NCBI GenBank assembly: GCA_905178155.1
Contig: CAJINV010000002.1
Span: forward strand, 11,200,634 to 11,264,633
Direction: 5' to 3'
Source of the DNA: Amoebophrya sp. A120
Lineage: Eukaryota; Protista; Dinoflagellata
Length of the DNA stretch: 64,000 bases
Below are positions 13,338 to 64,000 of this stretch, piece after piece (position 1 is the stretch's first letter; each line of letters begins with the position of its first letter). Position numbers and translations under genes: made by a program. Under the pieces are notes generated by a model that worked only from the letters and a program-made list of their open reading frames with translations, was not told the origin of the DNA and did not search any database.

Positions 13338-15520
13338 TGAATCCTCTCATTCGCCGAAACCGAAAAAGAAAATGCAGACTTGAGAAACAGAATGCCGGAG
13401 GCGGTAATTCTAATTACATGATACTAGAAACTTGAGTGATAAATAAATTGTACTCAGATAAAAACTCCAGAGAACAAGAATCAGCTGGCAGTTAGTCGTA
13501 GCTTACTACTTCCTCCTGGGCTGATCAAAGCAGCAAAGGGGAGGAAAAGCTGAAGCGCGATGTAGTTGATGCTTGTATTGAGCTTTATTCGAAATGAAAT
13601 AAAACCACGTGATTTATCGCGATTCTCACACGGAAATCGTGTAACTCAAGACATTTGATCAACACCAGCATAGTACACCGGCGAGCACAAATTTGGAGTC
13701 ACCCGATTCTGTAAAACTACCATGATTACTAAGGCTTGGCATTCATGAACCAACGCATCGTTCAAATATTCTTTATTCAACTGAAAACGCTTATGTCTTA
13801 TCGTCGAAGTCGAACAAAGAGAAAGTCTACTATTGGAACATCATTTGCAGATCGAAGATGTCGTTTTCGATGGAGTAAACATGTTTTGAACCTTTCAAAA
13901 TGAACCACCTACTTCTATGCTTCCGCCCACAGGCATATAGAAATGTGCAGAAGTCCAACTACGATGATGATACGTTTGTAACGTTAACGGCCAGACATCG
14001 GTCGGGCATCAAGCAGACATTGAAACTTTCTAAGTTTACAGGACTCGATGCATGCTGGCGATCGCCTTTCATCAAAGTTCTTACGGTATGTCACCTACCG
14101 ATGACCAATAGACATAGAAGGAAAATATAACGACCTCGTCAGCGCCGCCTTGAATGAAATGAGAAACAACACGAAGGATTGAGCAGGACGAAGCCATATC
14201 GGGATTTCCGTACCGCTAAGTGGTCATTGACCAGTGTTCCTGTGCGTGTGCTCTTGAGCTCTCGAGCGTAAGCTAATGACATCCAGGGAGTGAACCTCCG
14301 CACTGCATGTGCATGTGCGTACTTACTACAAAGATGGAACTTTATCTGCGCTTCGAGGTTGCAGCCGTGCTGCTAACAAGTGAAAGGAGCTTGTGCGCTG
14401 CAACCAGGAAAAATAAACGTCAAATTGCTTCAACTTAAGAATAAGATACACCAGCTCCTCTTCTTCCTCCCGTTGTCACTCACTGTCACCGTTTTCTTTG
14501 AAGAAGATGAAGAGGTTCATCTTCGTCTTTAGCTTCTCAAGACCCGGCATGAGCCTTGTCGGCGAATGATGGTGAAAAGATTATTTGTGTCCTGCTCCTC
14601 CCGAGGATAACTAATACATAGCCAAGCTTCCAGCTCACTTCGAGGCAAGAGAATCTGCTTGCAAAACATGGGACTGAGACTGACGTAACCGTAAGTTAAG
14701 ATTTCGCGATTTTCATCGGTGATTCTTCGAATACCTTGTTGTGTTTGTCATGGTCTTTGTCGTCAACCTCCGTTGGTTTTATTTGTATTCTGTTCGTCTT
14801 CTTCGATGGATTGTGGCGCGTGAACGATTTTCCGAGCGTCATAATTAGACCTCTTGATATCCTGCTTTCTGATCCCGGTCCGTCGAGCAGTTTCAGTTTC
14901 TCTTTTTTGTGTTTCTGTTTGTTTGTTTTTTCTTGCTTCATGTCCTAAATTTTTTTTGTTCCACGTCGTCAGTGTCTCGTCCGCCCACCGAATATGTTCA
15001 GCGTTCTTGGCTATTCTCCTTGTCGTGAAATATTTATTTGTCGGGCGAATCAATCATATCAGCCTTGGTTGAAGATATTGATAGTGACGTGAGTTGTAGT
15101 TTTCTTTTTTTTCTTTCACAGGTTCTTGAATGCCAGCGGCAAGAGGAGGCGCCAAAGGCAAACTCCCCCCTGGTGGCCGGGCACTGCTAAAACGGGCGGT
15201 GAAACGTCACTGGGGGTGCAGAAGTGGTCTACCCACTTCTGCAGAAGCACTTACCTTCTGGAATTGCACTACAGTATGTGGGAGGCTTTTACCGCTCACC
15301 TTGAGAAGCGCACACGTCATTCTTTTTTTTGATGAGAGCGAGTGAGATAAAGAGAAACCGCACATCAACAGGACCAGGAGGCGAGTCCTTCGACTCTGAC
15401 TCGTTCGTCTTCGTGTGCGTTTGATGGTGAAGGATAAGGCTCAGTGTGTCAAATAACAGAAGAACTGATGAGTGAAGACCGCACCGCTTCGTCCTCGTCA
15501 CCAACCGATACAAGATCAAG

Positions 15521-25230: not shown

Positions 25231-25527
25231 GGAAAATCTCGGAGAATCTCCTTGGCCCAAGGAGATTCTCCTGGACCCCCAGGAGAATCTCCTCCCTCCC
25301 CTCCTCCTCTCTCCTAATTTTCCATTTTTTTCTTCTTTCTTTTTTTTTCTTTTCTTTCTTTTTCCTTCATTTGCTTCCTTTTCCATCATTTGCTTCCTTT
25401 TCCTTCATTTCCTTCTATTTCCTTCACTTCCTCCCGCTGTCTCGCTCCCCTTCTCCCAAGGAGAATCTCCTTGGCAAGGAGATTCTCCCCGAACGTGGGA
25501 GAATCTCCTTGCCAAGGAGATTCTCAT
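25231..25527. repeat. Two clusters of the palindrome GGAGAATCTCCTTGG(C)CAAGGAGATTCTCC separated by a polypyrimidine tract
   Basis: The clusters are at 25241-25291 and 25456-25525, with a T/C-rich spacer at about 25292-25455. Confidence 0.75.
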
Positions 25528-36400: not shown

Positions 36401-39400
36401 GGCTCCGATCGAAAGAGAGGCATACCAGTGGGGTTTTGCTTCCGAAGACGATCGCGATGAGTTCCTGCATTCGGTTATTCAAGCGGACCACTGGCGGCAG
36501 GATTCGGACCGCGGATGGATCAACGTTATCCCGGTCGGCAAGACCGGGAACAGCATGGCAGATTATTTCTTCATCCACCTCCCGCACGCCGACAGCAACC
36601 CGATCGCGTTTGGCCCTGTTTGGTACAATAAGTTTTTGTCCGACCTAGCATCGGCCCACCCATGGCTGTCCGTTTCTCTCGAGGGTCCCGCTACGAAGGA
36701 CGCCGCTGCCGCCGTGGAAGCTGCTGCGGCCGCTGCTGTCGCCGATTTGCATTCGACGTCCGCCCTGCGTGCCATCCATTCTGTTGCCGCCCCGTGCCCG
36801 GACGACTATCGTGCAAGAAAGGGACCAGCGCCTACGGCCCCGCTTCTGACACCCGGAGGAGGAGCGACGGAGCGTGACCCGCTTAGCAACCGCATTGCGT
36901 GTGGAATAAAGCTCCCGAACAACATGGGGACCCAGATCGTTTCGATGTTGCCGGACTCCGGAAACGGCGCCGGCCGCTGGCTCTACGGAAACTCTTTAGG
37001 AAATCGGCAGTGGTTCGAGTCTCGCAACTTCGAGATCAAGCGGAATCCGAACAAGAAGGAGATGACCGGCTTCGGGACGCCCGCCGCTGGTGTTTTCAAC
37101 GACGACTGCCGCTACGTAGAAATCGATGCTGTTTTTTTCGGATGGAACGCGGCTGGCAAGTGGCACGGCCCGGAAGAAAATATTACCGTCGCGCCGAGTG
37201 TCGCGCCGCACTGTTTCCGCCGGCGGTTTCCGACTTCTCTCCTCGATATGTCCAAAGGTGCAAGTATGCAGCTCGACAAACCGGCCGGAGATTCCGAGTT
37301 GAAGGCCGCTGTCGTCCAGGCAAAATTCCTGATCCTGCTGGTCGACTGGACCTACGAAGATGATGTTTGGATCGCGGGAATGGCCGATCTATCGCGACTG
37401 GGATTCCAGATGAACGACCCGAAGAGCTTGTGCGATCTCTATGGCTGCTACTCCTTTACCCGGACTACGCTCGGAGAACCTTTGATGGTACCACGCTGCC
37501 CGCACTGGATTAACAACGAGCGGACCCCGAAGACGAAGATGATCGCCGCTCCGCCCGGTCTTGGCCCCGATCCTGCTACCACCAGCTCCGGCCCGGAGGG
37601 TAACATCGCTGACCACCAGTCTGCCACCGCGAAATCCGTCACATGGGGAACGGTCGAAGAAAATTTTATCAGGATGACCAGGATGCAGAACTTCGAGGAG
37701 GGAAAGAACGTCAAGCGACTGTCGCAGTACTCTTTTGTCGAAACAGGGTGCAGCGACGAAGATGAGAAGCCAAAGATCCCGACTTTCCGATCCTCCATGG
37801 TCAGCGCCGAACATGAAGAGCTTTGGAACTGGGTGCAGGATGTGGAAACCTCCGACGGCCTGAGAAATCCGAAGCTGGAGACCGACCCTATTAGTGGATG
37901 GCTCCAGTATGTTCTGGTCGTGCAGCTCGTGGGCCTCATCGTCGCTGGGGTTCTTCGCTTCAGCAACTGGGTGGGTGGACCATACTCCTGGCTCGACACC
38001 ATGAAGCATGGCTCTTGGCTTTGCCTTGATCATGCCAAGGGATTTTTGCAGTTCCTCCTACATGAAATGTTGAAAGGATTCTTGGCCCTAGGGTATGGGA
38101 ATAAAGTTTTTTCCCCCCTCCGCATGTTTTTGGGGCTCATCTTTGCCCCCGCTTTATACTCGATGTGGGTGGCTCTTGTGTTTGGTTCGCTGACGGATCC
38201 GGCGCTTCAGGCGGCCCAGCTGGACACCATCACACAGATGAGCAGCCACCAAGCGGCCGCCGACTTGCAGGACCAGCATGGCACCGCTTCAACAGCCTGC
38301 ACCTATCGAGACTATTGCAGCCACGACACCAGTACCGAAGACGACCTAATCGCCTCCCTGATCAGTGGCCAACCCTCCGGATCGAGATACTCCGTGCCCT
38401 ACATGGACGATTGCAACAGCCGGGCCGACTCACCTGCTGCCCTTCTGATTCGACTCGCGCAGCACTTGGTCCGGGCCTGCGTTTCCGGCTTCAAGTTTTC
38501 CCTGTCGAAAATCCTGGTGAAGGCGAAGGTCTACATCCTAGGCTGGGAGCTGTGCTACAAGACCCGCGGCCGGCGCCCGGATCCAGAGAAGGTCGCCGCT
38601 TTCGATGCCCTGCCGATGCCAAGAAGCGTGAAGGAACTGAAGTCGTTCGTTTGTGTTGCCAACTACATGTCGAACGCCGTCCGCAATTGGCCCGAGATTC
38701 TGGACCACTTCTCTAAGTACCTACTGGGGAAGATCCCTATTACCAAGCTGGCAGCCGACGAAACAGCAAAGAAGTACTTCGAGTCCTGTAAGGCAGAGCT
38801 GCGAAAGGCGGTGCTGCTATCGGAGCTTGATGAACTCGCCGCCGTCAACTGGAAAACGACCGGCGGGATTCCACGTTTCGGGATCGACAGCTGCCGCCCG
38901 GGGATGTCTGTCTTCGGTATCCAGCGGCAGCGCGGCCGGGACGCGATTATCTTTGCAGGCCACAAGAGATTTTCCGAAGAGGAACAAGAGCGAAACGCAA
39001 ACTCGTCAGGTCGAATGGAATTGCTGGGCCTGCTCCACTTTGTCCGGGAAATCTTACCAAAGATTCCGCTTTCGGTGCCCTTTATCCTTTTCTTCGATTG
39101 CAGCTCCACCGGTATCCGGGAGCTGATCACGTCTTCCCAGGATGTCAGGACGGAACGGTCCCTGTCGTCAATGGCTTCGGAAATCCATTCCGCGCTGTCC
39201 GGCCGCCTCTGTTACCGGGTGCACCGCGTTGGGTCGTCCAGTAACCTCGAAGACATTGGATCCCGATCCGGCACGGAAGCGAAGCCCGATGGCGTCGAGT
39301 CGAACCACGAAGAATGGAAGGAGAAAGTCAAGGACCTGTTTCAGCGGTTTGAAGGCGCCCCGATCCCGGAGGACCCGGACCTGGAGGAAATACTTTTGCT

Positions 39401-42400
39401 AGCCAGCCTGCCACCGGCGGATCCGTCTTCCGACGCCGAGTATTGGACCGTGGACCCATCGGTATTGGAGCCCTTCGTGCCGTCGGAGCATGTCGTCCGC
39501 ATCGACTGTAGCACCCTGTTTCCGCTACCACAAGCGGTCTCGGTCGACATTTCGTTTGCGCCGATGGTATCGATCCCCGGCGCCCCGATAACTGCGACGC
39601 CCGCGGAACTCGAGGAAGGGGTCCGGTTTGAAGTTACCCTACTGGAAAAACATAAAAAAACTGTCAAGCCCCGCGTGGTCCTTCGCGACGTCGTTTCGGG
39701 GGAGCAGATCAAGCATGCGCGCTGTCGGCTCCATCAGGTCGGTCCTGCACCCAACCAAGAGAAACAGGTCGCAGATCCGGGCCCCGATACGAAGGTCAGA
39801 AACGCGATCAGTGGAAACGCGACCCAGGAACAGATCGACGCGGAGATTACCAAGCGAAAGGAGGCCGCACAGGAAAAGCTGTCAGACCGCGACTTCCACC
39901 AACTGATCTGCAATACGCTCCTGAATACGCTCCCCGCCGAGATGCCGTTCGAGCTGCGCTGCTGCTTCGTCAAAATCTGTTGTGTCCTCCGCGCCGCCCT
40001 GTGGGCCCCGGGCCAGCCTTTCCCGACGGTCCGAATCGCGAAAGCATTCCACCCGATCAACCCGCGGGCCTCCGCCGGTGTCTCGCGGCGTTTCAGCCTG
40101 CCTGGCGTGCTGGATCACATCATGAGGTTCCTGATCGAGGAAGCCATGTCCGAGGGGTTTATCGAGCCCTGGTTTAAGAAGGCCGCCCAGACCGGGGCCC
40201 CGTCACTTATATCCAGTATGTTCCTGGCAAAACGGAAAAAGTCGCTACTGGGGCGGATTGTGGTGGACTGCGTCGGAGTAAATAGACTCTTCGAGGCTGT
40301 AACGTGGCCCATCAACTGGTGTGCGGATGTCTGGAAGGAGTTGCTGTCCGGATTTCCGGTCGTCGAATCGGAGGAGTCCGACCCTTCGCCCCCGGCAACA
40401 GCGCCGAAGCCGAAGCAGACCCGACCCGCAGCCACCCGCGAAGAGGACGAGGAAGCGCACGTCGCCCCTGTCGCATCCCCAGAGGAAGCGGCGGAAGAAG
40501 TTGCGATCGCTGCTGCCGCCCTGGCCGACGAAGTCACTGCAAACCCCACCGGGCGGAACGTCTGCAAACACGGCGAAACAGCTACCGAAGAAGAAAACGA
40601 AGACGATGAAACAGACCGAATTTATGATATTTTTGATGATGGAGATGCTCTCATGGAGGACGCCAACGCCCCCGCGGCAAGCCCGGACGCGGACGAGCAT
40701 CTCCTTCCCCCGGAGGATGAAGAACAGCTGCTGAATCCGGACGACGACAGCAAGGAGAAAGTCGCCCCGCTCCGGCTTCCCGAATGGGCTTTCCACATCC
40801 ACTGCCGCCGGAAGGACGACGTCCGGGGCAACAATCTCGTCGTGACCCTCCGCCCGAAGTACATCCTCCCACCCTGTGGTGATCGGTGGCTTCGATATGG
40901 GTTCACGAACCGAAATAAAAAGGCCGGGCCGCCTGAGCGGGCCTACCGACTGATCCGCCAGATGCTCGGCCACGACCTATCCCACCCTATTAGCAAAACA
41001 TGGCGAGAGTATAAAATCCTGCCACCCCGTGCGGAACTGGACGCAGAGTCGGTCTGGTTCTCGCGGAGCATGCATCTCCCACGCGGCGCCAGGCTGTACG
41101 ACGATGAGCACCCGTCCTGCCCGACTGCGCGGGTGATCTTCGACTCCAAGAACTATTTCCTTTTCCAATGCTTTTGCGATCGCGGGCCTGCCGATGCGTC
41201 CCCGTCGGTCGAAGTGGAGTACGGACAGAATCCGGTCGAGATTCAAGCCGAACCGCCTGAGATGGGGCCACTGAAGAAAGGCGCGAAGGAACTCGATGCG
41301 CTCCTCGACAGCCTGGGAACTGTCGACGCCTCGGAAGTTGTAGTATCGACGCCCGGGGACGAACTGCCTGACGAAGATGCCCAGGCGGACTCCATCCTTT
41401 GGAAAACCGCGACGGAACTCGAGCGAGTTATCTTCCCCGCGAGTTCGACCGAGTGGGTCTGGTCCACCATCCACATTCTCGTCGGCGAAGGGCAAGACGA
41501 AACCTATACCGCCGAGAATGCGACGCGGTTCGTCGAGATCCGGGTCGCGCGAGACGATGAAGGAAACATCATGGAAGGAAAGATCCGCCGGTGGGGCGGT
41601 GCTCTGATGTTTCTGGTGGTCGGGGACAGTTTTCTCGAGAAACGGAGGCCGAACACGATCTACCTCCTGTTCGCGCGGAAGCTGATCGCCCTCCTGCACC
41701 TGGAGCCCGATTTCAAAAAAGTTCTAACGGAGACCCAGAAGCGCCAGTTCGTTCTGGAATTTGCTGCCTTCGAGGCCGTCGCCCGATCCGAGGAAGAAGA
41801 GGAGCAGATCGCCCATCTGCTCGCGGTTGCGAAGAAGCATGGCCTCCGCCCGAAACGGAATAAGGCGATGGCGATGCTGGAGCGACTCCCGTCCTACCGC
41901 CTTTGCGGCGACGTCCTGCAATTTCGCGTCCCCCTCCACGGCTGGAAGATCCTGCTGCCCACCCTTGTAGAACCTGAAGAATTTATTTTCGAGGGCCAGA
42001 CCTATGACCATACCAGCATCGCAGTTGCTGTGATCAGTGCGATCCATGCGGTTTCGCACGGACGGAAAGGCATCCTCTACCACCTAACACTGCGAAAAGG
42101 ATTCTTTGTCGAGGGCGGATTGCTGGACCTCTGTGCCAAGATCGTATCCTTATGCATCTACTGCAGCCTCAGCCCCTACGCACAACAAGGCCCGAGCTCA
42201 GTGCGACTGCAACCACGGTTGGAGCTGTTCAGGCACCGGGGACAGGTGCTGTTTATCGATTACATCTGTGGCCTTGCTTCCGGTGACGAGTTCAGCAGCA
42301 TTTTTACGGCCACCGACGGACGAAGCGAGCTGACATGGGCGGAGCCGACGACGGACGCGACGGCAGCCACGGCCGCCGACTGCGTCTTCCGCTTGATGTT

Positions 42401-44330
42401 GGCAACTTTCACACTGTATTCCTACATCCGATGCGACAATGGGTCGCATTTCGGGCGTCTATTTCTGGACACCCTAAACGCGCTCATCCAGAAAATCGAC
42501 CCCCTGCACGAGGTCAAGACCTGGAAGAGTCCGCACTACCTCGCGTCCGGAAACTGGATGGTCGAACACCCTCACCACCTGCTCAACTTTCTGATCCGCC
42601 TGCTACACGCCCTGGCTCCGCCGAGTTTCCGACTGGAGCGACGAAACACGATGGACGGCGAGTTTTTGTTTGTTGTCCTCGACGACCCGAGTATGAAGCT
42701 GGTGGCCGAGAAGAAAAAGATCAACGTGAAGCGCGGCCCGAAAGGGAAGAAACAAGCAGCCGAAGAAGCCGAAGCACAGGAAGAAGATGCGATGGCGTTC
42801 CTGCCTTCCAACTGGTCCGACCATGTCCGCCGTGCTGGTTACCTCCTCGGAATCCAACCGCGGGGCAGCTATGCCGGTGCATCGCTGGTCGAACGGCACT
42901 GGGGTGCTGCAGCGCCGATCGCCGCCAACGAAGCTGTTTTCTCCACAACTGTCGAGGGGGATCTGCTCGATGAAGTTTCGCTCGCGATCAAGAAACGCCG
43001 AGAAACCGACTTCGAAGCTGTCGCGAGCCGCATCTTCAATCACGGTCGAAGCGTGAAGCGCGAAGCCCAGAAAACCGTCAACAAGGACCTGACTGCCGGC
43101 GACACGGTGATCCGCTTGAAACCCGATCGGTCCAAATACGAAATGAAGTTCTTGCCCCGGATTTTCGTCGTCCAGCATCGGAATGCCAACTCGGTCGTGC
43201 TTGGCTGCCTGCTCGGCCGCAGAATCCGCTTCGGGCAACCGCAGGCGATCACGATGGTTCGCGCCCTCCCGCTTACGGAGCCTGCGATCCTGGCCTACCT
43301 GACTGCCGCCCTGACTCCCGGCGAAGTTTCGAAACGCGTAAAGGAACTCGTGCAGCTGGGAACGCTCGACCGCGAGTGGCCCGCCCGCCCGCCCCTGTTG
43401 CGTCGCCAGCCGGAGATCCTACCACCGGGGGAAATCGTGATCGTCTCCTACAACCTCGATGGACTGTTTGCTTCGATCGAAAACGGCCCGAGACTGCTGG
43501 ACCTGGAAGAAATTCTGAAGATGAAGCCCCACCTGATTTTTTTACAAGAGACCAAAGTCTCCCCGTCGCTGGAAACGAAAGCCCGCGACGCGCTCAACGC
43601 ACTGGATTCCGATTACACGATCTACCTGCGCCCGAGCGTCTCCAAGATCGGCTATTCGTCCACTGCTGCCCTCGCCCGCAGAGACCTCCCACACGAATAT
43701 TTTGGCGCGACCCGCTTCAACTCCGAAGTGCAGCATGAAGGTCGCTTCCAGGAAATTGTTGTTGGGGGCGAACACACCTTCGGGAATGTGTACAGCGTGA
43801 ACGCGATGGAGGAGTTGCGTCGCATGAAGCAGGCCCAAGCCTGGGACCTGGACCTGCGTCAGTGGCTCGCCGGCCCGGGAAAGCGGATCCTCATCGGCGA
43901 TTTCAACAGAGTGATCGACCGATCGATTTACGGCCTGCACGGGCGGCACAACCGAGAAACCCCATCGACCTCACGCCAGGAAACTGCCAGCATCCAGAAA
44001 CTGCTGGGGACCGAAAATAAGGCGCTGCAGGTGACGCACGGGAAACGCAGCTGGACCATCTGCACCTATGACAAAACCGGTTTTGCTGTTGATTATCTCG
44101 TCCTGAACAAAGAGGCCCAGGACGCCAACACGGGACCGCTGAAGAACAAACCGACCACCGAAAAGCGCCCGGACCAACTGCAACCAGCGGCGAAGGAGTT
44201 GTTCTGCTCCCCACCCTCCATGACGCTGGAAATCAGAGGAACCCGGCGGGGAATCGACCACCAAATCCTGATTAGCCACATGCGGGTGGGGGAAGATGAG
44301 AAAACTGAAGTGACTGCCGAGGCCTACTAG
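27442..44330 (+). CDS. Retroelement Gag-Pol-like polyprotein (~3852 aa when 27442-34989 is joined to 40320-44330), Ty3/Gypsy-like enzymes plus C-terminal AP endonuclease
   Basis: The N-terminus is Gln-rich, coiled-coil and Pro-Ala-rich, followed by a Cys/His cluster (30061-30235). Protease LPDSG at 31624. RT motif A (LCLDHAKGFLQ) at 32695, motif B (RMFLGLIFAP) near 32791, YMDD at 33070, then KVYILG and thumb PDPEKVAA..PMPRSVKELKSF. RNase H D/E/D/D at 33556/33688/33766/33922. RT fingers GFIEP..SSMFLAKRKK..GRIVVD..VN..WP at 34720-34989. Integrase HHCC at 42045-42164 and D/D/E at 42258/42435/42564. APE SYNLDGL, LQETK, GDFN, DY, DH at 43431-44330. Confidence 0.9.
29760..40319 (+). repeat. Apparently identical 5230-bp direct duplication (29760-34989 = 35090-40319) straddling an N gap; probable unmerged contig overlap
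   Basis: The offset is a constant 5330, all ORFs in the track repeat identically, and the copies abut the 100-N gap exactly. Confidence 0.9.
34990..35089. other. Assembly gap (100 N)
   Basis: Run of N. Confidence 1.
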
Positions 44331-47430: not shown

Positions 47431-50400
47431 TCAAAACTCAACGGCACCAGAATTCAGAAAGTCGGGATTTAGGCGGATTTCCGTTTCGATAGGCATACCG
47501 GCAGCTGCTCCTGACGAAAGATAGTTGTCCAGTGGTGGAGGTGCAGCACCTGGCCCTGCTGTTGCTGACCCCGCGGCGCCTTCAACTTCATCGAGGTTGA
47601 CTCGCGTAGGTCCAGCACTTTCCTCCTCGTCGTAGTTTATGTTGTAAAACGCGTCCTGCAGCGTTCTCAGCTCTTCCGGCCAAACTTCGAGGATGTGTCG
47701 CAGGCTTTGGTGCAGCAGCACCCCTTTGAAGGTACGTAGGTAGGTGATCGCCGCTTCCACCGCAGGGCGTTTCACTGCTTCTCCCAAATTGCCCCCCAAC
47801 CGCCCAACTTTCGTGAGCAGGTCCACCACCAGAGCAGTTCTCCACTTGGCTCCGTCCTTCAGCACGTAGGTGAGACCAATCCGCGTCAATTTCTCAACAT
47901 AGCTGCGGGCAGATTCTTATTCTGTGTAAACGCTTTCTGTCCACCACCTAGAAGGATTCTTTCTCACATTACTTCAGGACTGGACGCATGCAGATTGATG
48001 CATATAATCCGCGACGTCTTATTTGTAAAGCCGACGGCACTTGATCATGCGCATGCAGGCACCATCGTCAAGTAGCTGCGAGTGTCATTATGTATGATGG
48101 TGAATCACCATTGGTGATGCTGCGTCGCCCTGTACAGCCTCTACCTAAACTGGGTGACGACTCCGAGCTCGGGCTGGGCACTTTTGACACAGAATAATTC
48201 TTCCTCGCAGAAGCGCCTGAGCAGCTTCAAAAAAGGAATCAGAGCTGCTCGCGCGTACTGTGGATTTAGAAAACACGCTTGACCCAAAACCTCCAGCAGC
48301 CGGATGCCGTGGCTCCCCGCTAACCTATGTTGTTCGATGGATAGATAGTTCGTGCTGATGGCGATTTAGATTTCGTGCACCGAGGATGTTGACAAATGTG
48401 CTCGAAGGAGCTTGCATCAGTGGGATGAAGTCACTGAGTGTGAGTCATAGTGTCAATCATGATCGCGAAAGAAACAAGTGACCTCGTTTTTCGGTAAACC
48501 GAATGCAATATGCATTTCTTCATGTAAAATCAATCTTAATCTTGAAAATGTGCAGACGTTATACACTTATTTTGCAAAGCTTCTAGCTTAATGCTTCTAC
48601 AACATGCACCTGTCGTGCCCTGCAAGCGCCATGAGGAGATCAAGATCCGCAAGGGACAGGGCCTGGGTCACGTCAAGCTGCTTCAGGAGCTATGGATGTG
48701 TCAGGATCGAAATCGACAATATCGAAAAACTTGTGATGCATAAAATGTAGGGCACTGAAGGCCTGTATTGGGGAGCAGGCAAATGAGACCGATGGCAAGC
48801 CTGTTTAGGGGTATGCAATGCGCTGCCAGAATAGCGTGACAGGGGCAGTCTTCTTTGTCCAAACACCATGACAGACTGGATTTCGGTGCTCCCGAAATTT
48901 GTGATGCGCCACTTGGAAACTGAGGCTCCAACTGGTATTGATTTTATGCATCACAAATCTTTCGATTTTGTCAATTTCGATTCTGACACTTCCATAGGAG
49001 CAGCTCGGCTAATACGCCGACGGGGACGTAGGGCTGTATGGGGCTCTCAAACGTTACATTCTCAACTGTTGCATGATTTGTCATGCAAAAACACTATCAC
49101 TATTCACACGAACAAGCCTGCCTTGCATGGCAACTTCTCGACGCGCTAAATAGCACTATAATCCGTCCCAAATCTGTAATGCAAAAGGCGCAATCTTCCT
49201 CCCGTACTTTTGCCACTCTTGCATTACAAAGAAACTCATGTAACAGTTGAGAATGTAACGTTTGAGAACGCCATAGGCTGCTCGAGAAAGCGAATCAAGT
49301 GCCGCAGCGCGAAGGCGCGAATTGGGTCGGTGGAGCTTGCGGCCCTACTTGTCGAGGAGGAGCCCGCTCCTGTAACGACGTCCTTGTCCTGCTCGCGCTG
49401 GTGATGAAACAGCATGCCTCTCTCCATAAACACGCAGCAAATTGTCCGATACGCTGCGCTCGCGTACCGCACCACCTGCGCCTCGCAGAAGGCCTCCACG
49501 AGGAAGAACAGGCAGGACCAGGCTTGGTAGGTCTCCGTGGTGGCAGGAAACACCAAAGCGGCCGCGCGCAGTCGTTCTAGCAGGCTGGCACAGGCATCAT
49601 CCACAGACATGGGCGACAGCTGGCGGTCGTGAAAGCGCAAGACAAGCTCCGCCGCGAAACAGAGGCCAAGAATGTCGTCCGTTTGCAAACAAAAGTCCAA
49701 CAGCGGCCCGAGGGCACCTTGCGTTGTTTTAATAGAGGCGTAAGCAGCTCTTTTTTTTTTGTAGATCAGGCTCAGGATCAGAAGATGCTGATGCAGTATG
49801 AAAACTAGATGTTGATGTTGTGTACCTTTGTTTATCCTCATAAATAAAGAACATTCTTCTGAGAAAAAAATATCACGTAAAAATTCTTGCTCATTGCTTG
49901 GTTTCTGGTGGTGTAGTATCGTTTGCACCTTGCCAATAGAGCGCTTCCGCTGCGTCGGCTCGTTCCAGGAAACAGCGGCCCAGGAGGTAAATTGTTTCCA
50001 TATCGGCCATTTCCGGGAGGAACTGGGTCCACAACTCTATTTGTGCGTCTCTTGAGCAAAGGTACACAAAAGCTGAAACTGCGTCGGCGGAAATGTTCCC
50101 ATTAGAAACGCCGAGAGGTACCACTCGCGCGACTGGAGAAATGCCGCTTCCAACACCTGCGCGGGAACCACGTGGCATCTTTGTTCGCGCATTTTCCTCT
50201 TTGAACGCAGAAAGTGGTCCCGCTGCAAGGTACCGCTGTGGCCTTGAAGTCGGTGATGAAGTCGCGATTGCGCTTGCTTCTTGTGCTGCCGCAGCTTCCA
50301 TTTGTTCTATGGTAGTGTGACCAGGACCGTCAGGAGCTGACCCATCCTGTCCGCCGGCCTGGTCCGCCGGCTTTATGTTTATCGCATCCGCCTCGCCATA

Positions 50401-54886: not shown

Positions 54887-57104
54887 TTAGCCCGAGTGTT
54901 GCTGCAGTGGGTAGGGTATCAAATGTAAAAGTGTCTGGGTCTGGAAGAATGCGAGCTCTGTCATGCTAGTCTGGCATGGCTCTTTAAATCTGTCATGCAC
55001 GTTACCCAAGAGCCCCACGTTGCTGTCATGCAGAAACGCAGTTTGACATGCAGAATAGGCAACACCTAAAAGCTCAAAAGCTTGTCATGCTGAGCCAGCA
55101 CTTGTGGAATCTTCATGATACGCCACCCAGCATCACAAGTTTCCAGACCCAGACATTTTTACAGTCCATACAGGGTACGGGAGGGGGTCCGAAACTCGTA
55201 TTCAGGGGCGTGGTGGCGTTCTGGCGACAGTCGAGGAAAAACTGCTTCTTCACCACACCAGGCTCAGTTGTCGGACACGTCGCGTAGCTGCACTGCGGGC
55301 AGTGACCACCCGTGACGCAGTCATTGAGGCCCACATCGTGGCGCGTGGTGTTCAGGCTGCAGCCGAGGTACTCGTGAAGGACAGGTGGGTTGCCGTTTGA
55401 TTTGCCCATAGCGGGCGTCATCGGTCCAATGTCCAGCTCAAACTTCTTGTGTAACCACGCGTTCACCACGTTACCCTGAGCGTCCCGTTGGGTGTCGCAG
55501 ATCCAGGCAATTTCCATCATGTCCCACCCCAGCGCGGGCACGCCTTGCGAGTGGTCGAAGGCAAACATCTTGCCGCAGGTGACGTTGTCAGGCAGAGTCG
55601 AGTTTACGTCGGTTGCATTGGAAACTATGGTTCCGCTCATGTTCACGGCGGTGGGATTTCTCTTCTGCTCCATGCGCGATTGTTGGAATTTCTTCTTGGC
55701 CATCAGCTGCATGTCTAGCGCGCGCGGAGTGGGTGCGGTCCCGGGTGGAGATTGACTGCCGTAGTCGCCGAAGATCTCCGCTTCTAGCTGTCGCTGCTCT
55801 GCGTACTCATGCGCGAGATCGTCCACGCCATCCGTTTCTGTCTTACCATTCACCAGCAGCACGCTGTGCGGCGATTGCGCCTGCTTCGTGGCCAGAAAGT
55901 TCCTCGTTATGGCGCTTCCGCTTTTGCCGGGAAGCCCGGTGGTGACGCTGATGCCCTGCGCAACCTCGTTGAGGGTCTCGGGATTCGTGTGCAGGCTGTT
56001 TGTCGTGACGAGCTCCGTGTCTGTGAGAAAATCCATGTCTTTCTCATCCTCTGCGCGACTGGCGTCCGTGAGAAACGCGTCTTCCCCCCGATTCCTGGCC
56101 TCGATCGCATCTGCTTCTCGCTGCTGCTTCGACTTCGGTGGCGTCGCGCCTGCTTCCTTCCCAGCGACCCGAGCTCCGTAGTACGCGTTGAGGGGGTTTT
56201 GTTGCTTCTTGAACTTCTCGACCAAGCTTGATTTCGACGCGGAAGCCGGTATGTTGTACACGTCAGTTCGAAAGGATCGAAGCAAAAAACTACGCCAGTG
56301 CAAAGCTGTAACTGTACTATTGTAATAGAACGGCATCACGTTGTTCATGCACGGAGGCCGGGACAGTTGCTATATGTGCCACAGAGCCAGCAAGGGTCCA
56401 TCTCCATGCAAAAGGAACACGTCGTGATAGCTAGTGCTACTTGTACTTAGTTGCCATACACAACCAGGGCACGTTTGTTTTTGCCAGCGCGGATAAAACT
56501 AAATGAATTGCTCCACCCGTCGTGTATGTTGTCAATGGTGCAGCTGCAGCTGTTTTGGATTCAACATGAAATAAGGCAAACGACAAGATTGAAGTTGCAC
56601 CTTGCACTGACAAAAGCTCTTTTGCTGGGATATTCCCGGAATGCGGTGGAGCCTCACCAAGCCACTGGTGAGCTGACTCGGCGCGAACTCGTCAGACGCG
56701 GGCGATTGGAGGCTTTGCTCGAGCTCCTCGTCCGCATACATTGCCGCGTCCTCAAATTCCCCGCCAAGCCCATCCCCGCCTGGAAGCGTCGGGGAGAAAA
56801 AGCTCGAATCTGGCTCGGCAGAACCAAGAACGCCCCCGCCGAGGGTTCCGCTATTCGGTAGCGGTATCTTGCTCCTGCTCCTGCTGTTTTTGTTGCTCAT
56901 CTTCATGCTTCTCACTGTCATCGCGCCTTGCTGCCTCCGGGTTTGGTGTCCCTGCTCTCTCTTCACTTGCCTCCTGGAGCCGTCTTTGTCTTTCAGCTTT
57001 TTCTCTGAAATGTTTTTGCGGCCCGACACAGTATTTTTGCGTTTGCTTACGACCGTGCCTGAGGCGAGGACGGCACCCAGAAGCAAAGCAAAAATCATCG
57101 GCAT
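54887..57104 (-). CDS. Secreted hypothetical protein with Cys-rich C-terminal domain (multi-exon)
   Basis: Signal-like MPMIFALLLGAVLASG in ORF 56532-57137, followed by a 411-aa ORF (55113-56348) with a Cys cluster. Removing the 54913-55177 introner gives ...GPPPVP|YPLQQHSG* with the stop at 54887-54889. Confidence 0.65.
54913..55177 (-). mobile_element. Introner-like intron with ~30-bp terminal inverted repeats, direct repeat AGGGTA
   Basis: tatcaaatgtaaaagtgtctgggtctggaa pairs with ttccagacccagacatttttacagtccata. AGGGTA lies at 54913-54918 and 55172-55177. Confidence 0.8.
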
Positions 57105-57746
57105 CCTCAAATAAATAGTAGTTTCTCCGTGCTGCACGTCCTTGACTTCGGATTTTTTTGTCCGCAGTCAATGCAAATGCATCTACTAAGAGTGATTGAT
57201 TATAAATGGTGAAGCACGCGCAACAATGTCAATGTGACGACTTTTCCATGTTCATTCTATGTTCATGCAAATCCAGCCGTCCGGTTTTTTTTTGTAGTAG
57301 CGAAAAACTGATTTGATTTTCCCGTCGGTTACCCTACAGTCGCTCTGTTTTTCATCTGTCTCAAAACTTTTTTTCGTTGGTCTCACACGACGCCTCCTCT
57401 CATGAGCACAAGAAAACGAGACACCAGACGGCGCGACTAGGATGCCTAAAATTGACAAGATTACCATGTTGACACGCCGGGAAGCAAGGACAACAGAGGT
57501 TTTCGACTGCAAATCTCGATACAGAGTTGCACGAAGCTCAGACTCTTGAGTATGTAGGAGTTGAACATGAACTCGATTACTCGTTATATTCGCCCGGACG
57601 ATGATGTAGATGGACAGGTACTGCGTACCTAGACTCAACATCTCCGGGAAGCCTCTCTACTCTAATTATTGCTGTTCTATGGATGACGAGCTTCTTCGTT
57701 TGACGAAGCGGAATCAACATGGCGCCATGTCTTTTATAATTTATAT

Positions 57747-60700
57747 CGGACGTCGATAAATATTACTAAACAAATGGGAGTGCGTCCCCGGGCCCCTTGT
57801 TGAATCCGAAAAATGCTGTGGGTCGTGCTAATAATTCCTCAACTTTCTCGCGCCCGCTCTTTTTCTCTTGAGAAGAATGTCCGGCGCGCCCTTCGTTTTT
57901 TTTGAGAAGATTCAAAGGGGGCGCGGGGGTCCGAAAGTTCAAGAATATTTATCAATATCCGTACAGATTTCAGAAAGAAATCTAGAACAGATTTCCCCGG
58001 CTATTCTTCAGCGACTTCCCCCCATCGTGTCTCGTTTTTTTTACCTTTCTGGCGCGCTTCTTCTCGGCGCGCGAGGTTTTGCATTTGCTTGCGCGCGACC
58101 TCCGACGCGCCGGAGCGAGGCCGCGCACGGCTTGGAAAGCAAGAGCGCAAACGACGCGCCCCGCGTTCTGTCCTGCGCTTGCGCCAGTGCCGCTCCTTAG
58201 TAAAGCAAATTCTGCAGCATCCAAGACAGCGCGACTGTGCCGCCGCTGGCGACTGGCAGGTCTGGCATGCCAGACCTGCCAACCCAAAAGAAAAAAAAGA
58301 AGAATCAAAATTCTTTTTTTTTTGTTTTTGGGTTGGCAGGTCTGGCATGCCAGACCTGCCAGTCGCCAGCGGCGGCACAGTCGCGCTGTCTTGGATGCTG
58401 CAGAATTTGCTTTACTAAGGAGCGGCACTGGCGCAAGCGCAGGACAGAACGCGGGGCGCGTCGTTTGCGCTCTTGCTTTCCAAGCCGTGCGCGGCCTCGC
58501 TCCGGCGCGTCGGAGGTCGCGCGCAAGCAAATGCAAAACCTCGCGCGCCGAGAAGAAGCGCGCCAGAAAGGTAAAAAAAACGAGACACGATGGGGGGAAG
58601 TCGCTGAAGAATAGCCGGGGAAATCTGTTCTAGATTTCTTTCTGAAATCTGTACGGATATTGATAAATATTCTTGAACTTTCGGACCCCCGCGCCCCCTT
58701 TGAATCTTCTCAAAAAAAACGAAGGGCGCGCCGGACATTCTTCTCAAGAGAAAAAGAGCGGGCGCGAGAAAGTTGAGGAATTATTAGCACGACCCACAGC
58801 ATTTTTCGGATTCAACAAGGGGTCCGGGGACGCACTCCCATTTGTTTAGTAATATTTATCGACATCCGTACGGAATTCAGAAAGAAATCTAGAACAGATT
58901 TCCGCGGCTATTCTGCAGCGACCTCCTCCCATCGTTGCTCATTTTCCTGCGCTTTTTGCCGCGTCCCTTCTCGGCGCGCGTGGTTTTGCATTTGCTTACG
59001 CGCGACCTCCGGCGCGCCGCACTAGTAGAGCGCTACTCTAAGGGGAGCCGCGTGGTCTCTCGCGAAGAAGAGCGAGGACCCTCCTCTACTTCAAATAGAT
59101 TATCTTTTTGAAGACGAAGACTATCCGACCCGTGAAGCAGATCTTATTCTTCTCGCGGATCGTCCTCCTCTTCAGGAAGTAAGATCATCTTTCAGAAGAA
59201 GAGGATCTTCCTACTCGTGTAGAAGATCTGCTTCTTCTCGAGGATCGTCTTCTTCTTCAAAAAGAAGAAGATCTTCCTCTTCGTGAAGCCCAAAGCGCGC
59301 CATGCGCTCCTGCAGAACTTTATCCCCGACGGCGTGATGCGTCGGGGGCGCAAAAAAAGCCAACGAATCTGCCGGCTCGCGTTAAAATGGTTGGCAGGTC
59401 TGGCATGCCAGACCTGCCAACCCAAAAACAAAAAAAGAAGAATTTTGATTCTTCTTTTTTTTCTTTTGGGTTGGCAGGTCTGGCATGCCAGACCTGCCAA
59501 CCATTTTAACGCGAGCCGGCAGATTCGTTGGCTTTTTTTGCGCCCCCGACGCATCACGCCGTCGGGGATAAAGTTCTGCAGGAGCGCATGGCGCGCTTTG
59601 GGCTTCACGAAGAGGAAGATCTTCTTCTTTTTGAAGAAGAAGACGATCCTCGAGAAGAAGCAGATCTTCTACACGAGTAGGAAGATCCTCTTCTTCTGAA
59701 AGATGATCTTACTTCCTGAAGAGGAGGACGATCCGCGAGAAGAATAAGATCTGCTTCACGGGTCGGATAGTCTTCGTCTTCAAAAAGATAATCTATTTGA
59801 AGTAGAGGAGGGTCCTCGCTCTTCTTCGCGAGAGACCACGCGGCTCCCCTTAGAGTAGCGCTCTACTAGTGCGGCGCGCCGGAGGTCGCGCGTAAGCAAA
59901 TGCAAAACCACGCGCGCCGAGAAGGGACGCGGCAAAAAGCGCAGGAAAATGAGCAACGATGGGAGGAGGTCGCTGCAGAATAGCCGCGGAAATCTGTTCT
60001 AGATTTCTTTCTGAATTCCGTACGGATGTCGATAAATATTACTAAACAAATGGGAGTGCGTCCCCGGACCCCTTGTTGAATCCGAAAAATGCTGTGGGTC
60101 GTGCTAATAATTCCTCAACTTTCTCGCGCCCGCTCTTTTTCTCTTGAGAAGAATGTCCGGCGCGCCCTTCGTTTTTTTTGAGAAGATTCAAAGGGGGCGC
60201 GGGGGTCCGAAAGTTCAAGAATATTTATCAATATCCGTACAGATTTCAGAAAGAAATCTAGAACAGATTTCCCCGGCTATTCTTCAGCGACTTCCCCCCA
60301 TCGTGTCTCGTTTTTTTTACCTTTCTGGCGCGCTTCTTCTCGGCGCGCGAGGTTTTGCATTTGCTTGCGCGCGACCTCCGACGCGCCGGAGCGAGGCCGC
60401 GCACGGCTTGGAAAGCAAGAGCGCAAACGACGCGCCCCGCGTTCTGTCCTGCGCTTGCGCCAGTGCCGCTCCTTAGTAAAGCAAATTCTGCAGCATCCAA
60501 GACAGCGCGACTGTGCCGCCGCTGGCGACTGGCAGGTCTGGCATGCCAGACCTGCCAACCCAAAAGAAAAAAAAGAAGAATCAAAATTCTTTTTTTTTTG
60601 TTTTTGGGTTGGCAGGTCTGGCATGCCAGACCTGCCAGTCGCCAGCGGCGGCACAGTCGCGCTGTCTTGGATGCTGCAGAATTTGCTTTACTAAGGAGCG

Positions 60701-62513
60701 GCACTGGCGCAAGCGCAGGACAGAACGCGGGGCGCGTCGTTTGCGCTCTTGCTTTCCAAGCCGTGCGCGGCCTCGCTCCGGCGCGTCGGAGGTCGCGCGC
60801 AAGCAAATGCAAAACCTCGCGCGCCGAGAAGAAGCGCGCCAGAAAGGTAAAAAAAACGAGACACGATGGGGGGAAGTCGCTGAAGAATAGCCGGGGAAAT
60901 CTGTTCTAGATTTCTTTCTGAAATCTGTACGGATATTGATAAATATTCTTGAACTTTCGGACCCCCGCGCCCCCTTTGAATCTTCTCAAAAAAAACGAAG
61001 GGCGCGCCGGACATTCTTCTCAAGAGAAAAAGAGCGGGCGCGAGAAAGTTGAGGAATTATTAGCACGACCCACAGCATTTTTCGGATTCAACAAGGGGTC
61101 CGGGGACGCACTCCCATTTGTTTAGTAATATTTATCGACATCCGTACGGAATTCAGAAAGAAATCTAGAACAGATTTCCGCGGCTATTCTGCAGCGACCT
61201 CCTCCCATCGTTGCTCATTTTCCTGCGCTTTTTGCCGCGTCCCTTCTCGGCGCGCGTGGTTTTGCATTTGCTTACGCGCGACCTCCGGCGCGCCGCACTA
61301 GTAGAGCGCTACTCTAAGGGGAGCCGCGTGGTCTCTCGCGAAGAAGAGCGAGGACCCTCCTCTACTTCAAATAGATTATCTTTTTGAAGACGAAGACTAT
61401 CCGACCCGTGAAGCAGATCTTATTCTTCTCGCGGATCGTCCTCCTCTTCAGGAAGTAAGATCATCTTTCAGAAGAAGAGGATCTTCCTACTCGTGTAGAA
61501 GATCTGCTTCTTCTCGAGGATCGTCTTCTTCTTCAAAAAGAAGAAGATCTTCCTCTTCGTGAAGCCCAAAGCGCGCCATGCGCTCCTGCAGAACTTTATC
61601 CCCGACGGCGTGATGCGTCGGGGGCGCAAAAAAAGCCAACGAATCTGCCGGCTCGCGTTAAAATGGTTGGCAGGTCTGGCATGCCAGACCTGCCAACCCA
61701 AAAACAAAAAAAGAAGAATTTTGATTCTTCTTTTTTTTCTTTTGGGTTGGCAGGTCTGGCATGCCAGACCTGCCAACCATTTTAACGCGAGCCGGCAGAT
61801 TCGTTGGCTTTTTTTGCGCCCCCGACGCATCACGCCGTCGGGGATAAAGTTCTGCAGGAGCGCATGGCGCGCTTTGGGCTTCACGAAGAGGAAGATCTTC
61901 TTCTTTTTGAAGAAGAAGACGATCCTCGAGAAGAAGCAGATCTTCTACACGAGTAGGAAGATCCTCTTCTTCTGAAAGATGATCTTACTTCCTGAAGAGG
62001 AGGACGATCCGCGAGAAGAATAAGATCTGCTTCACGGGTCGGATAGTCTTCGTCTTCAAAAAGATAATCTATTTGAAGTAGAGGAGGGTCCTCGCTCTTC
62101 TTCGCGAGAGACCACGCGGCTCCCCTTAGAGTAGCGCTCTACTAGTGCGGCGCGCCGGAGGTCGCGCGTAAGCAAATGCAAAACCACGCGCGCCGAGAAG
62201 GGACGCGGCAAAAAGCGCAGGAAAATGAGCAACGATGGGAGGAGGTCGCTGCAGAATAGCCGCGGAAATCTGTTCTAGATTTCTTTCTGAATTCCGTACG
62301 GATGTCGATAAATATTACTAAACAAATGGGAGTGCGTCCCCGGACCCCTTGTTGAATCCGAAAAATGCTGTGGGTCGTGCTAATAATTCCTCAACTTTCT
62401 CGCGCCCGCTCTTTTTCTCTTGAGAAGAATGTCCGGCGCGCCCTTCGTTTTTTTTGAGAAGATTCAAAGGGGGCGCGGGGGTCCGAAAGTTCAAGAATAT
62501 TTATCAATATCCG
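57747..62513. repeat. Palindromic concatemer: 1138-bp unit in alternating orientation (2276-bp period, two periods plus one extra 215-bp module)
   Basis: Symmetry centres fall at 58307.5, 59445.5, 60583.5 and 61721.5, shown by mirror-image ORFs in the track. Layout: M(+) 57747-57961, foldback A 57962-58653, M(-) 58654-58868, foldback B 58869-60022, M(+) 60023-60237, A, M(-) 60930-61144, B, M(+) 62299-62513. Confidence 0.95.
58255..58360. repeat. 106-bp cruciform cassette: two copies of the 26-bp perfect palindrome GGCAGGTCTGGCATGCCAGACCTGCC around an imperfect A/T hairpin (also at 59393-59498, 60531-60636, 61669-61774)
   Basis: Read directly at all four symmetry centres. Confidence 0.95.
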
Positions 62514-64000
62514 ATTGTACATGGAAACATTTTTCTGGCTGCAGACGAGATAACGTCACAACTGCACCATATTTGTATCATTCATTTCCAAGCTTTCTAC
62601 ATCGCCAGAAAGACCGCGGCGCAGCAGTATATCAAGAGGATTTAATTCGCCAGAATTCATCTTGGGGACGCTCTTTAACGTAGTATCGCGCTGGCGTTAC
62701 ATCGCTTGGCGAGGTACAATTCTCGAAGGACGAGCACAGCTATCTGGTTGAAGAAAAATACTTACGCCGCATCTGATGCTGACATCTTGATCTTGGAAAA
62801 ACAAACAGCATAAAGCTTGCGCTTCACTGTCATTTGAGTCTTACTATTGTGTATACAGTTACAGGAAAACAATACCATCATCATTTGTATTGACTTTTGA
62901 CTTTATTGCCTTTGTGTTTTTTCTGTGGCAGCATCATCATGCCTCTGAGTCTGACTTTTATAGCGTTACTTCTTCCGACGTATAAATATTCATCTGTTTT
63001 TTGCTTCGCGATTTCTGTACTAGTACTATGATCTTACACGCAGCGCAGCTGTAGTTGCTGTTGAGGCTACTTCGGCTGCCCCTCATTAGGTTTTATATGG
63101 TGAAATTGTAATCATGCTGGTATAGAGCTCCGGATTGCACCTGCGCCTACGTCCGCTCTCTACGTGTCGGAGTTCGGTGGATGAGCGTCTGCAGTGTGAC
63201 AGCTCAAAAGTTGCGTATTCACGTTCTTCTTGTGTTTCACCAGCTTCTGCAGGCTTGATTGATTTGTTGCACTTTACTGCTTCTAGAGCAGGAGGGTCGG
63301 CGGCGTCGTGGTCGTTGTGGGAATCAACTCATTCTGGCAATCTCTGACCAGGTGCACAGCGCCCATCCATCCGTCCACTATCCTGCGAAAAAACGTTTCA
63401 TCCGCCCCATTCTCGTAGTCAATAGACAAGATCAAGAATGAAATCATTCTGCAGAAGTATACGACTCGGGCTGGCCTCGGTGAATGTCAAGAAGAAGGTT
63501 GACAAATACAAATTTGCTCTCTTCTGTAGAATAGAAGTGCTAATAGATTGGTATGTAGTGATCGCCATTTGCACCCTGACCTAAGGCACATATTGAAGAT
63601 GATACTAGCAATTATAAAAGAGCTAAAACAAAAATAGCACACTGCGCAGTCGTGGATATGACCGAGGACTGTTTCCACCAGGGTCCCTCTGATGGGCGTG
63701 GGGCGGGGACGTTTTTGAGTAGAATATCCGGACATCGCTCGTTTGCCGATTGACAGGCGTCGCAGACGGTGCCCACAGTGCAAGCCTGCACGGCCGGACT
63801 TATTTGCCTACAACTCCCAGTATGCAACATAAATTTGCCGCACATGGCTTTGAAAATACAACATCTTTGTGAGACTGCATTTTTTTGCTCATCTCGTTCA
63901 CGTAGTACAAAAAAAGAACAATATGGATTTCGATTTGGATGCTTATGCTCCTCCACCTCCTAGTCCTAGTCTGGTCATAGAAGTACAAGTTTTCCACTTG

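Follow-up and report, generated by a model that had tools for sequence, protein, structure and literature searches.

The 64,000-nucleotide stretch of Amoebophrya sp. A120 DNA analyzed here (the window) contains, at positions 57747–62513, an array of units in alternating orientation, which raises the question of whether it records the replication of a small hairpin-ended DNA, as the original prediction proposed, or arose in the chromosome or in the assembly. The geometry that this prediction described is accurate: the four symmetry centers (58307.5, 59445.5, 60583.5 and 61721.5) are exactly 1138 bp apart, the arms are complementary at 300/300 positions from 30 to 330 bp out from each center, and the palindromic repeat has a direct period of 2276 bp that is exact save for two substitutions, 57751 and 57792, which lie within the first 46 bp of the array and distinguish its first core from the inner cores. 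Apart from these two positions, the arms are asymmetric solely at 4–5 unpaired positions in each 46-nt central loop. No further symmetry centers were found in 57000–63500, and the inner copies of the array are 100% identical to each other. Symmetry and period analysis thus delineates a core-bounded alternating multimer, with no strand assigned, of 4767 bp, or 2 × 2276 + 215 bp.

Each gene-less unit of 1138 bp is composed of a 215-bp core capped by 18-bp TIRs, two arms (L and R) and a cassette in which two 28-bp palindromes flank an AT-rich imperfect hairpin. Core 1 (57747–57961, + strand), located by repeat and TIR analysis, is followed by core 2 (58654–58868, −), which is inverted and has TA on both outer sides, core 3 (60023–60237, +), the inverted core 4 (60930–61144, −) and core 5 (62299–62513, +), a direct repeat of core 1 that closes the insertion. 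The TIR has ten exact matches in the window, every one inside the array, and 13 matches at three or fewer mismatches versus 0.14 expected. The L arm (58362–58653, +; mirror copy 57962–58253) and the R arm (58869–59388, +; mirror copy 59503–60022) both recur 2276 bp on. The core-proximal 151 bp of the L arm (58503–58653) recur in inverted orientation as the R-proximal 151 bp (129/151 identical), and the distal part of the R arm holds two degenerate 85-bp repeats (59097–59264).

The two cassettes, neither assigned a strand, differ in what they join. Cassette A (58254–58361; second copy 60530–60637) links L to L through a 28-bp palindrome, a 46-nt AT-rich imperfect hairpin (58285–58330, “flip”) and another 28-bp palindrome, and cassette B (59389–59502; second copy 61665–61778) links R to R through a 46-nt hairpin (59423–59468, “flop”) between 34-bp palindromes. 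The A and B loops, which are 86% AT and incompletely paired, are reverse complements (one difference in 46 nt) and not copies (nine differences), and their one-base difference tracks the L-L versus R-R context in both copies. At none of the four centers are the central bases paired, and the perfect 28- and 34-bp palindromes sit beside them. Adapter read-through was rejected as the source of the centers, as the sequence there belongs to the element and alternates between reverse-complementary forms.

A metagenome scan returned one further locus, L001, in a second assembly, so that the absence of other copies, named in the original prediction as telling against it, does not apply. L001 is a head-to-tail monomer at another site, core-bounded, AT-flanked and 95–97% identical, with the layout R-cassette-L, a B loop and flanks different from those of the window; core 1 has the same state at 57792 as the first L001 core. 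Alternating orientation is the layout assembled in the window, but the L001 insert is non-palindromic, and alternation is therefore one state of the family and does not define it. The proximal arms differ from L001 at 1/302 sites, the proximal 151 bp of the R arm being invariant, whereas the distal arms differ at 32/513 (Fisher p = 4e-6); judged from sequence, this conservation is as expected of putative protein-binding sites. L001 also contains a 163-bp duplication with a loopless R-palindrome-L joint, and two sequencing runs, X1 and X4, bear a similar joint (loose end at 61885).

The unit contains no credible ORF, in agreement with the original prediction: the longer ORFs cross mirror centers, and substitutions relative to L001 fall 13/6/6 by codon position (p = 0.14), with no significant codon periodicity. 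Among the matches listed, an X1 arm variant (287x) carries at least three small deletions, of 1, 2 and 2 bp, plus a 45-bp skip.

The array begins and ends at exact core ends, each adjoined by a host AT dinucleotide on the + strand, a putative 2-bp target duplication. The left AT (57745–57746) was read from the window sequence, and the right AT (62514–62515) is also covered by an X1 contig that has a depth of 30.2, spans 62486–64000 and extends only 28 bp into the core; at least two further X1 contigs run out of the core through this AT (loose ends at 62515). Among the aligned contigs, others join the core at 62396 or depart from the palindrome at 61775 by way of unassigned sequence. In the window and L001 together, AT is followed by CGGA at 4/4 host junctions read, while all ten internal core ends face TA; the frequency of the AT dinucleotide is 0.053. 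With the insert removed, the best open stretch across the host flanks is 88 aa (one AT retained) or 77 aa (both retained), against a background 90th percentile of 80, and no tRNA was found near the insertion. The original prediction had overlooked this anatomy of core, TIR and AT integration signature, and the interval that it marked out ends precisely on the 215-bp direct repeats with their 18-bp TIRs.

How might such an array form? We give about even chances to the element being a non-autonomous replicon with integrated, circular and hairpin-ended states that multiplies outside the chromosome as linear DNA with hairpin ends, its enzymes being lent by the host, a virus or some longer relative. 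In a monomer insert, recombination between the two direct cores would give a 1138-bp circle. Extrusion of the cassette as a cruciform and its resolution, or strand switching, could then convert the circle to a dumbbell closed by the flip hairpin on one side and by the flop hairpin on the other, and replication through the hairpins would generate a 2276-bp mirror dimer and longer multimers. A multimer may enter the chromosome by a transposase-type reaction at the core ends, cointegrate-like, with core and AT duplicated; alternatively, it may recombine into a core already in the chromosome. In favor of this model, joining the top and bottom strands of the L001 monomer layout predicts the window period with one mismatch in 2276. 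Counting against the replicon model, the sole second locus found is head-to-tail, and the host-side AT does not match the internal TA, where a simple recombinase crossover would need a match. The concatemer of hairpin-ended replication originally predicted therefore survives in part: the alternating flip and flop centers fit it and there is indeed a mobile, non-coding element in multiple copies, but the free form is putative and a head-to-tail state also exists.

Sequencing depth provides a measure of copy number. Of 23 runs listed from 12 studies, 20 contain part of the element and four were aligned; X1 and X4 are from one sample, which may be the source of the assembly. Relative to the flank depth of 30.2 in X1, single contigs give 19.6x for L, 20.7x for the proximal R arm and 19.8–21.4x for the core, while the window-type distal R arm is at 10.8x and a variant at 9.5x; depth on palindromic DNA can be biased. 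The comparison with neighboring sequence that the original prediction called for thus indicates a multicopy element, at about 20 times flank depth. The variant was considered as a copy of L001 and rejected, only 4/11 substitutions being common to both. The core:arm ratio of about 1:1 implies that most copies are neither L001-type monomers, which would give 2:1, nor solo cores, and that the roughly 20 units are concentrated in very few long arrays or exist free. The two variants, at about 10 units each, would be explained just as well by two long arrays in the chromosome, which also counts against the replicon model. In X3, an estuary metagenome from another study, the matches listed include an L-core joint and a piece of R without host flank; three short X3 matches on the cassette (34–51 bp, with 5–7 differences) were set aside as likely unrelated. 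The raw RNA run X21 had 0 reads on the element and on the flank alike. These data establish a multicopy non-coding mobile family in a likely Amoebophrya host.

One alternative is a purely chromosomal origin, which we regard as unlikely though far from negligible. Here the element would be a foldback-like TIR element of which a DDE transposase moves core-bounded blocks, and mirror arrays would form in place, by a break folding back at the cassette or by recombination between direction-less palindromes, the depth being explained by one or two such arrays, each of about 10 units, and no free replicon. The TIR ends and constant AT flanks are hallmarks of transposons, both variants stand near 10 units per flank copy, and the duplication and loopless joint of L001, like the joint in X1 and X4, indicate that palindromes do rearrange; short inverted repeats can also seed large palindromes. 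By contrast, the strict placement of flip at L-L and flop at R-R is what the dumbbell model predicts and chromosomal folding does not demand, solo cores, the cheapest substrate of a TIR transposase, are rare as judged from the core:arm ratio, and perfect palindromic arrays of about 11 kb are expected to be unstable.

A second alternative accepts the family as real and takes the array for a product of assembly or library preparation: the chromosome would hold a solo core or an L001-type monomer, whose flanks were threaded through a high-copy repeat or through cassette snap-back reads. We consider this improbable, albeit with several observations in its favor, namely the 100% identity of the inner copies, the four assembled units compared with about 11 by depth, the brief entry of the right-junction contig into the core and the very stable fold of the cassette (about −73 kcal/mol as DNA). 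The window also contains a scaffolding artifact, an exact 5230-bp duplication across a 100-N gap, which counts against the replicon model as well. Also against that model, contigs do not separate L-L or R-R from R-L junctions, the 36 exact bases common to both sides being longer than the 31-letter word, and the alternation therefore rests on the window's one assembly. Against an assembly product, the loop base that follows the L-L versus R-R context in both copies of each cassette suggests two physical junctions, the centers are element sequence common to L001, and mirror-form sequence, even if threaded, must still exist in the reads. The concern in the original prediction that copy number could be artefactual is justified for the four assembled units, which are doubtful, since depth suggests about 11 window-type units. 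Its argument from the dedicated cassette against fold-back artifacts carries little weight, since snap-back synthesis, in vivo or in the library, would be expected to turn at just such a hairpin.

An RNA-based origin, in which the element would be retrozyme-, TRIM- or viroid-like, with the cores as LTRs and the monomer a rod-like circular RNA that is reverse-transcribed, is highly improbable. The direct terminal repeats are near-identical within the insertion, and the L001 monomer folded as a circle is 74–76% paired (z about −24, 12 shuffles), but its inverted repeats alone explain this pairing. No self-cleaving ribozyme was found: all 70 Rfam matches listed are of hairpin type and under the gathering score, and two CTGANGA matches lack hammerhead geometry by eye. 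TRIMs, as non-autonomous LTR retroelements, have TG...CA LTR ends, a primer-binding site, a polypurine tract and a 4–6-bp TSD, whereas the element has CG...CG ends, no TGG primer site, 5–6 purines in the 15 nt before the core and a flank match of 2 bp. Nor is alternating orientation a product of reverse transcription.

On the hairpin-ended replicon model, an enzyme source might be sought in a virus or an autonomous relative. Across viral contigs, three motif scans gave 0 matches each, and the 18-bp TIR matched 17 loci there, none aligned beyond 34 bases, which we took as chance. Prokaryote genomes gave 0 matches and phages and plasmids no blastn match, such that none of these four collections provided an autonomous partner or enzyme. 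A giant ORF in the window (27442–44330) was rejected as the autonomous partner, having no DNA similarity to the unit. No comparable element appeared in the main texts of the open-access literature searched. Were the element a natural gene-less hairpin replicon in a protist chromosome, the host or a co-resident virus would be the source of two activities, one resolving its telomeres and one integrating it with duplication of a 215-bp end, and a 1.1-kb substrate would suffice to test for either. Such a replicon would also hint at the missing mobilizing enzymes of the host group, whose genomes, in the available text of one study, are overrun by non-autonomous inverted-repeat elements with few transposases found (PMC7789003). 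Under the alternatives too, the family is undescribed, multicopy and unusual in layout. More tentatively, and with less than even probability, the gene-less replicon of about 1 kb could represent eukaryotic mobile DNA of a new class, having flip/flop hairpin telomeres like those of poxviruses, about 15–20 free copies per genome, a cycle of circle, dumbbell and mirror multimer, and cointegrate-like integration at AT via duplicated TIR-capped cores, as a satellite of an unknown giant virus or of an autonomous element of syndinian parasites.

ISL2EU (PHIS) transposons and MITEs, as described in the available part of PMC4482050, have TIR ends and 5'-AT-3' flanks, the TIRs usually starting GG and the target being A|AT|T. 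The element shares TIR ends and AT flanks (4/4 junctions), but its ends start CG, its outer bases fit in 1/4, and the moved block is a core-bounded multimer instead of a single TIR element. Unlike a MITE family, with many dispersed solo copies of a short TIR element, core depth in X1 is about that of the arms. Helitrons start 5'-TC, end CTRR and occur head-to-tail only; the internal end copies of the element are instead preceded by A and both of its ends are TIRs. Amoebophrya introners, from the same host group, are non-autonomous, inverted-repeat-ended elements with 8–20-nt inverted repeats and 3–5-nt direct repeats that form introns, and the available portions of these accounts describe no hairpin cassette or multimer (PMC7789003, PMC12130899).

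Replicons with hairpin ends occur in viruses, bacteria and organelles. Those compared here have their own resolving enzymes or are engineered. Engineered AAV closed-ended linear duplex DNA differs in that head-to-tail forms were not detected, whereas L001 is such an insert; no Rep, Rep-binding or nick site of parvovirus type and no HUH Rep ORF was identified in the unit. Protelomerase replicons (phage N15, Borrelia, Agrobacterium) resemble the element as modeled here in their mirror-image dimer intermediate, in which the site that connects R with L in the circle gives L-L and R-R. The enzymes, per the available text, make cuts 6 bp apart within a palindromic center (PMC3558466), unlike the element, in which 4–5 positions including the middle are unpaired, no perfect palindrome crosses the center and no telomere resolvase gene is found. 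For endogenous phaeovirus elements of Ectocarpus, integrated, circular and hairpin-ended linear states have been proposed, with 2-nt host junctions (CC) and an internal linearization site centered on a 6-bp palindrome; in the portion of the study available, these are giant viruses with genes for a tyrosine recombinase and a telomere resolvase (PMC13236599). The element, by contrast, has a mismatched center, a 215-bp core duplicated at its ends and nothing encoded. Poxvirus telomeres are AT-rich, incompletely paired flip/flop hairpins formed by cruciform resolution, and a circle with one junction is resolved to a linear molecule with hairpin ends, A22 being the Holliday-junction resolvase (PMC8956199, available part). 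Distinct from these, the element is 1.1 kb, gene-less and inserted into the chromosome of a protist, accompanied by core repeats and AT flanks, its loop is flanked by extra 28-bp palindromes, and neither a viral resolvase nor a polymerase is evident in the ORFs of the element or as a real match in viral contigs. Like poxvirus concatemer junctions and hairpin minichromosomes, however, it has a loop of 86% AT with 4–5 unpaired positions that occurs in two reverse-complementary forms.

The array at 57747-62513 belongs to a real, multicopy, non-coding mobile family that is undescribed in the literature searched and is marked by a flip/flop cassette resembling a telomere and by an integration signature of core plus AT. 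By symmetry and period analysis, the array alternates in orientation and measures 2 x 2276 + 215 bp. As originally claimed, it has four symmetry centres with near-perfect arms (58307.5, 59445.5, 60583.5 and 61721.5; 300/300 complementary positions each, within the test range), and the 2276-bp period is exact save for two substitutions, both within the first 46 bp of the array. A unit opens and closes with a cassette half, between which lie the L arm, TA, core, TA and R arm in that order. The 215-bp core is capped by 18-bp terminal inverted repeats (TIRs), whose 10 exact matches in the window all lie inside the array, and the core-adjacent 151 bp of the two arms are inverted repeats of each other (129/151 identical). 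In the cassette, two copies of a perfect palindrome (28 bp long, or 34 bp towards R) enclose an imperfect hairpin of 46 nt and 86% AT. Loop A forms this hairpin at centres 1 and 3 (L-L joints) and loop B at centres 2 and 4 (R-R joints); loop A differs from loop B at 9 positions but from loop B's reverse complement at 1. The array runs from the first base of one core to the last base of another of like orientation, and host AT adjoins it on both sides.

The longer ORFs of the 1138-bp unit cross the mirror centres in our ORF survey of the array, codon periodicity is not significant among substitutions between the window and a second locus (p=0.14), and a high-depth read variant carries frameshifting deletions. 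The unit is non-coding, in agreement with the original observation of no credible protein ORF. An Rfam search gave no match at the gathering score, the sub-threshold matches all being of hairpin type, and we consider an RNA element highly improbable.

A search for other copies, proposed with the original prediction, recovered this second locus (L001) and no further one when a metagenome collection was scanned with the palindrome as query. Its element is 95-97% identical to that of the window, lies between unrelated flanks, and reads AT, core, TA, R, loop-B cassette, L, TA, core, AT. This is a monomer arranged head to tail between direct cores, and it has an internal 163-bp duplication at the palindrome. 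Across both loci, host junctions show AT then CGGA in 4/4 cases, and internal core ends face TA in 10/10. The core-proximal arms are nearly invariant (1/302 sites differ) in contrast to the distal arms (32/513; p=4e-6). The two L001 cores share 5 variants relative to the window inner core and differ mutually at 2 sites, both within a TIR, indicating that they were probably copied from a single template. In the last core, the inward-facing TIR (L001 5248-5265) bears the two bases of the opposite TIR, which suggests exchange between the inverted repeats flanking this core. In the surroundings of the insertion (L001 2600-3840 and 5465-6590), it adjoins a block of short palindromic repeats, and ~35 bp of its right flank recur 1.1 kb downstream; it is possibly nested in another element.

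Read support was assessed by comparing contigs from 4 of 23 listed runs with window 61690-64000; the runs containing the element are of organism A and, for the most part, of marine or estuary metagenomes. The right array-host junction is real, as a single contig of run X1 (depth 30.2) starts 28 bp within the core and continues across the right flank. Two more X1 contigs exit the core after the same AT. Depths were taken from single contigs because summed depth is no copy number, and with the caveat that palindromic DNA may bias the values they were 591 (L), 626 (proximal R) and 599-647 (core), with distal R at 327 (window-type) and 287 (variant). These depths correspond to about 20 units per flank copy, and about 11 window-type units compare with 4 assembled, which makes a count of four units doubtful. 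The core:arm ratio in X1 is about 1:1. Monomers of the L001 type (2:1) and solo cores therefore account for a small minority, the bulk of the units lying in a few long multimers or free. The element also far exceeds flank depth in X4, indel-rich data from the X1 sample. X1 and X4 may be the source of the window assembly, and independent support therefore comes only from L001 and X3, an estuary metagenome of a separate study with a 306-bp contig bearing the L-core joint plus a 151-bp R piece, and no flank coverage. Two X1 contigs at 62396 run from unfamiliar upstream sequence into the final ~120 bp of the core, and two at 61775 exit the palindrome into a diverged L-like start; these are candidate longer or autonomous relatives.

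Because the L and R sides of the cassette share 36 exact bases, mirror joints (L-L, R-R) and head-to-tail joints (R-cassette-L) are indistinguishable in contigs. That the alternation is a product of assembly or library has real support: the inner array copies are identical, the assembled unit count is at odds with depth, and the same window carries an exact 5230-bp duplication (29760-34989 and 35090-40319) flanking a 100-N gap, itself most likely a scaffolding artefact. We regard this origin as improbable; were it true, the mirror array would vanish and the element family would stay.

The window is rich in inverted-repeat-ended inserts resembling the Amoebophrya introners described in PMC7789003. 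Four (2330-2635, 2672-2952, 48690-48997, 49037-49275) have terminal inverted repeats, and another introner-like insert (54916-55171) shows 70% similarity to an L001 insert. A giant plus-strand frame (27442-44330; about 3850 aa after removing the duplication) resembles, by eye, an LTR-retrotransposon polyprotein and has a C-terminal endonuclease/exonuclease/phosphatase domain (PF03372, E=3e-7). A Pfam search of the frame detected no RT, and no PDB sequence matched a 900-aa stretch of it, which mark it as very divergent. Upstream, at 25241-25525, short palindrome-loop-palindrome cassettes share the design of the element's cassette and are unrelated in sequence. Of 7996 candidates scored against a transporter-like ORF (15476-16633), 3 are relatives; the closest two are 73% and 71% identical across about a quarter of the query, the latter from Amoebophrya sp. 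A25. Together with the introner-like inserts and the sources of the runs, these relatives make an Amoebophrya the likely host.

A single mechanism, all of whose circle, dumbbell, replication and integration steps we infer, would link the L001 monomer and the window array. The L001 layout would be read as a circle, the top strand carrying the unit plus loop B and the bottom strand their complements. Joining of the strands at the cassette would yield a dumbbell closed on one side by loop B and on the other by the reverse complement of that loop, and copying of the dumbbell would generate the 2276-bp mirror period; the period so predicted departs from that of the window at 1 position. The circle-to-dumbbell step is alike in geometry to poxvirus junctions as described in PMC8956199, where cruciform extrusion and resolvase cutting give flip and flop hairpins and plasmids become linear minichromosomes. 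AAV-like hairpin-primed strand switching (PMC3731302) or recombination at direction-less palindromes would produce the same sequence, which is thus compatible with several enzyme classes. The mismatched centre makes a protelomerase cut there unlikely, by comparison with the protelomerase sites in PMC3558466. The integration layout has direct cores outermost with AT flanks and the donor TA retained inside. A cointegrate would match these outer direct cores and inner TA, and recombination of a circle with a core already resident in the chromosome would leave an identical layout. Core 1 has two substitutions at its outer end, one matching the first L001 core, and from these we lean towards the resident-core route at the window locus. 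Of the hairpin mini-replicon first proposed, the real, multicopy, non-coding mobile family has stood, given L001 and the X1 depths; the hairpin-replicon model as such, with a hairpin-ended extrachromosomal form behind the window array, we hold to be evenly poised, and purely chromosomal foldback arrays to be doubtful.

The open-access literature searched listed no such element, though repeat libraries in supplements might include it, and phages, plasmids and prokaryote genomes gave no match. The element fails each test for a MITE, TRIM, Helitron or retrozyme, by the defining features of these classes. It has AT flanks in common with ISL2EU transposons but lacks the GG ends and A|AT|T target described for them in PMC4482050. 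The element has no genes and no match among viral contigs, and is therefore a member of neither the poxvirus nor the phaeovirus systems; nearest to it in working are the poxvirus minichromosome and the proposed phaeovirus cycle of three states (PMC13236599).
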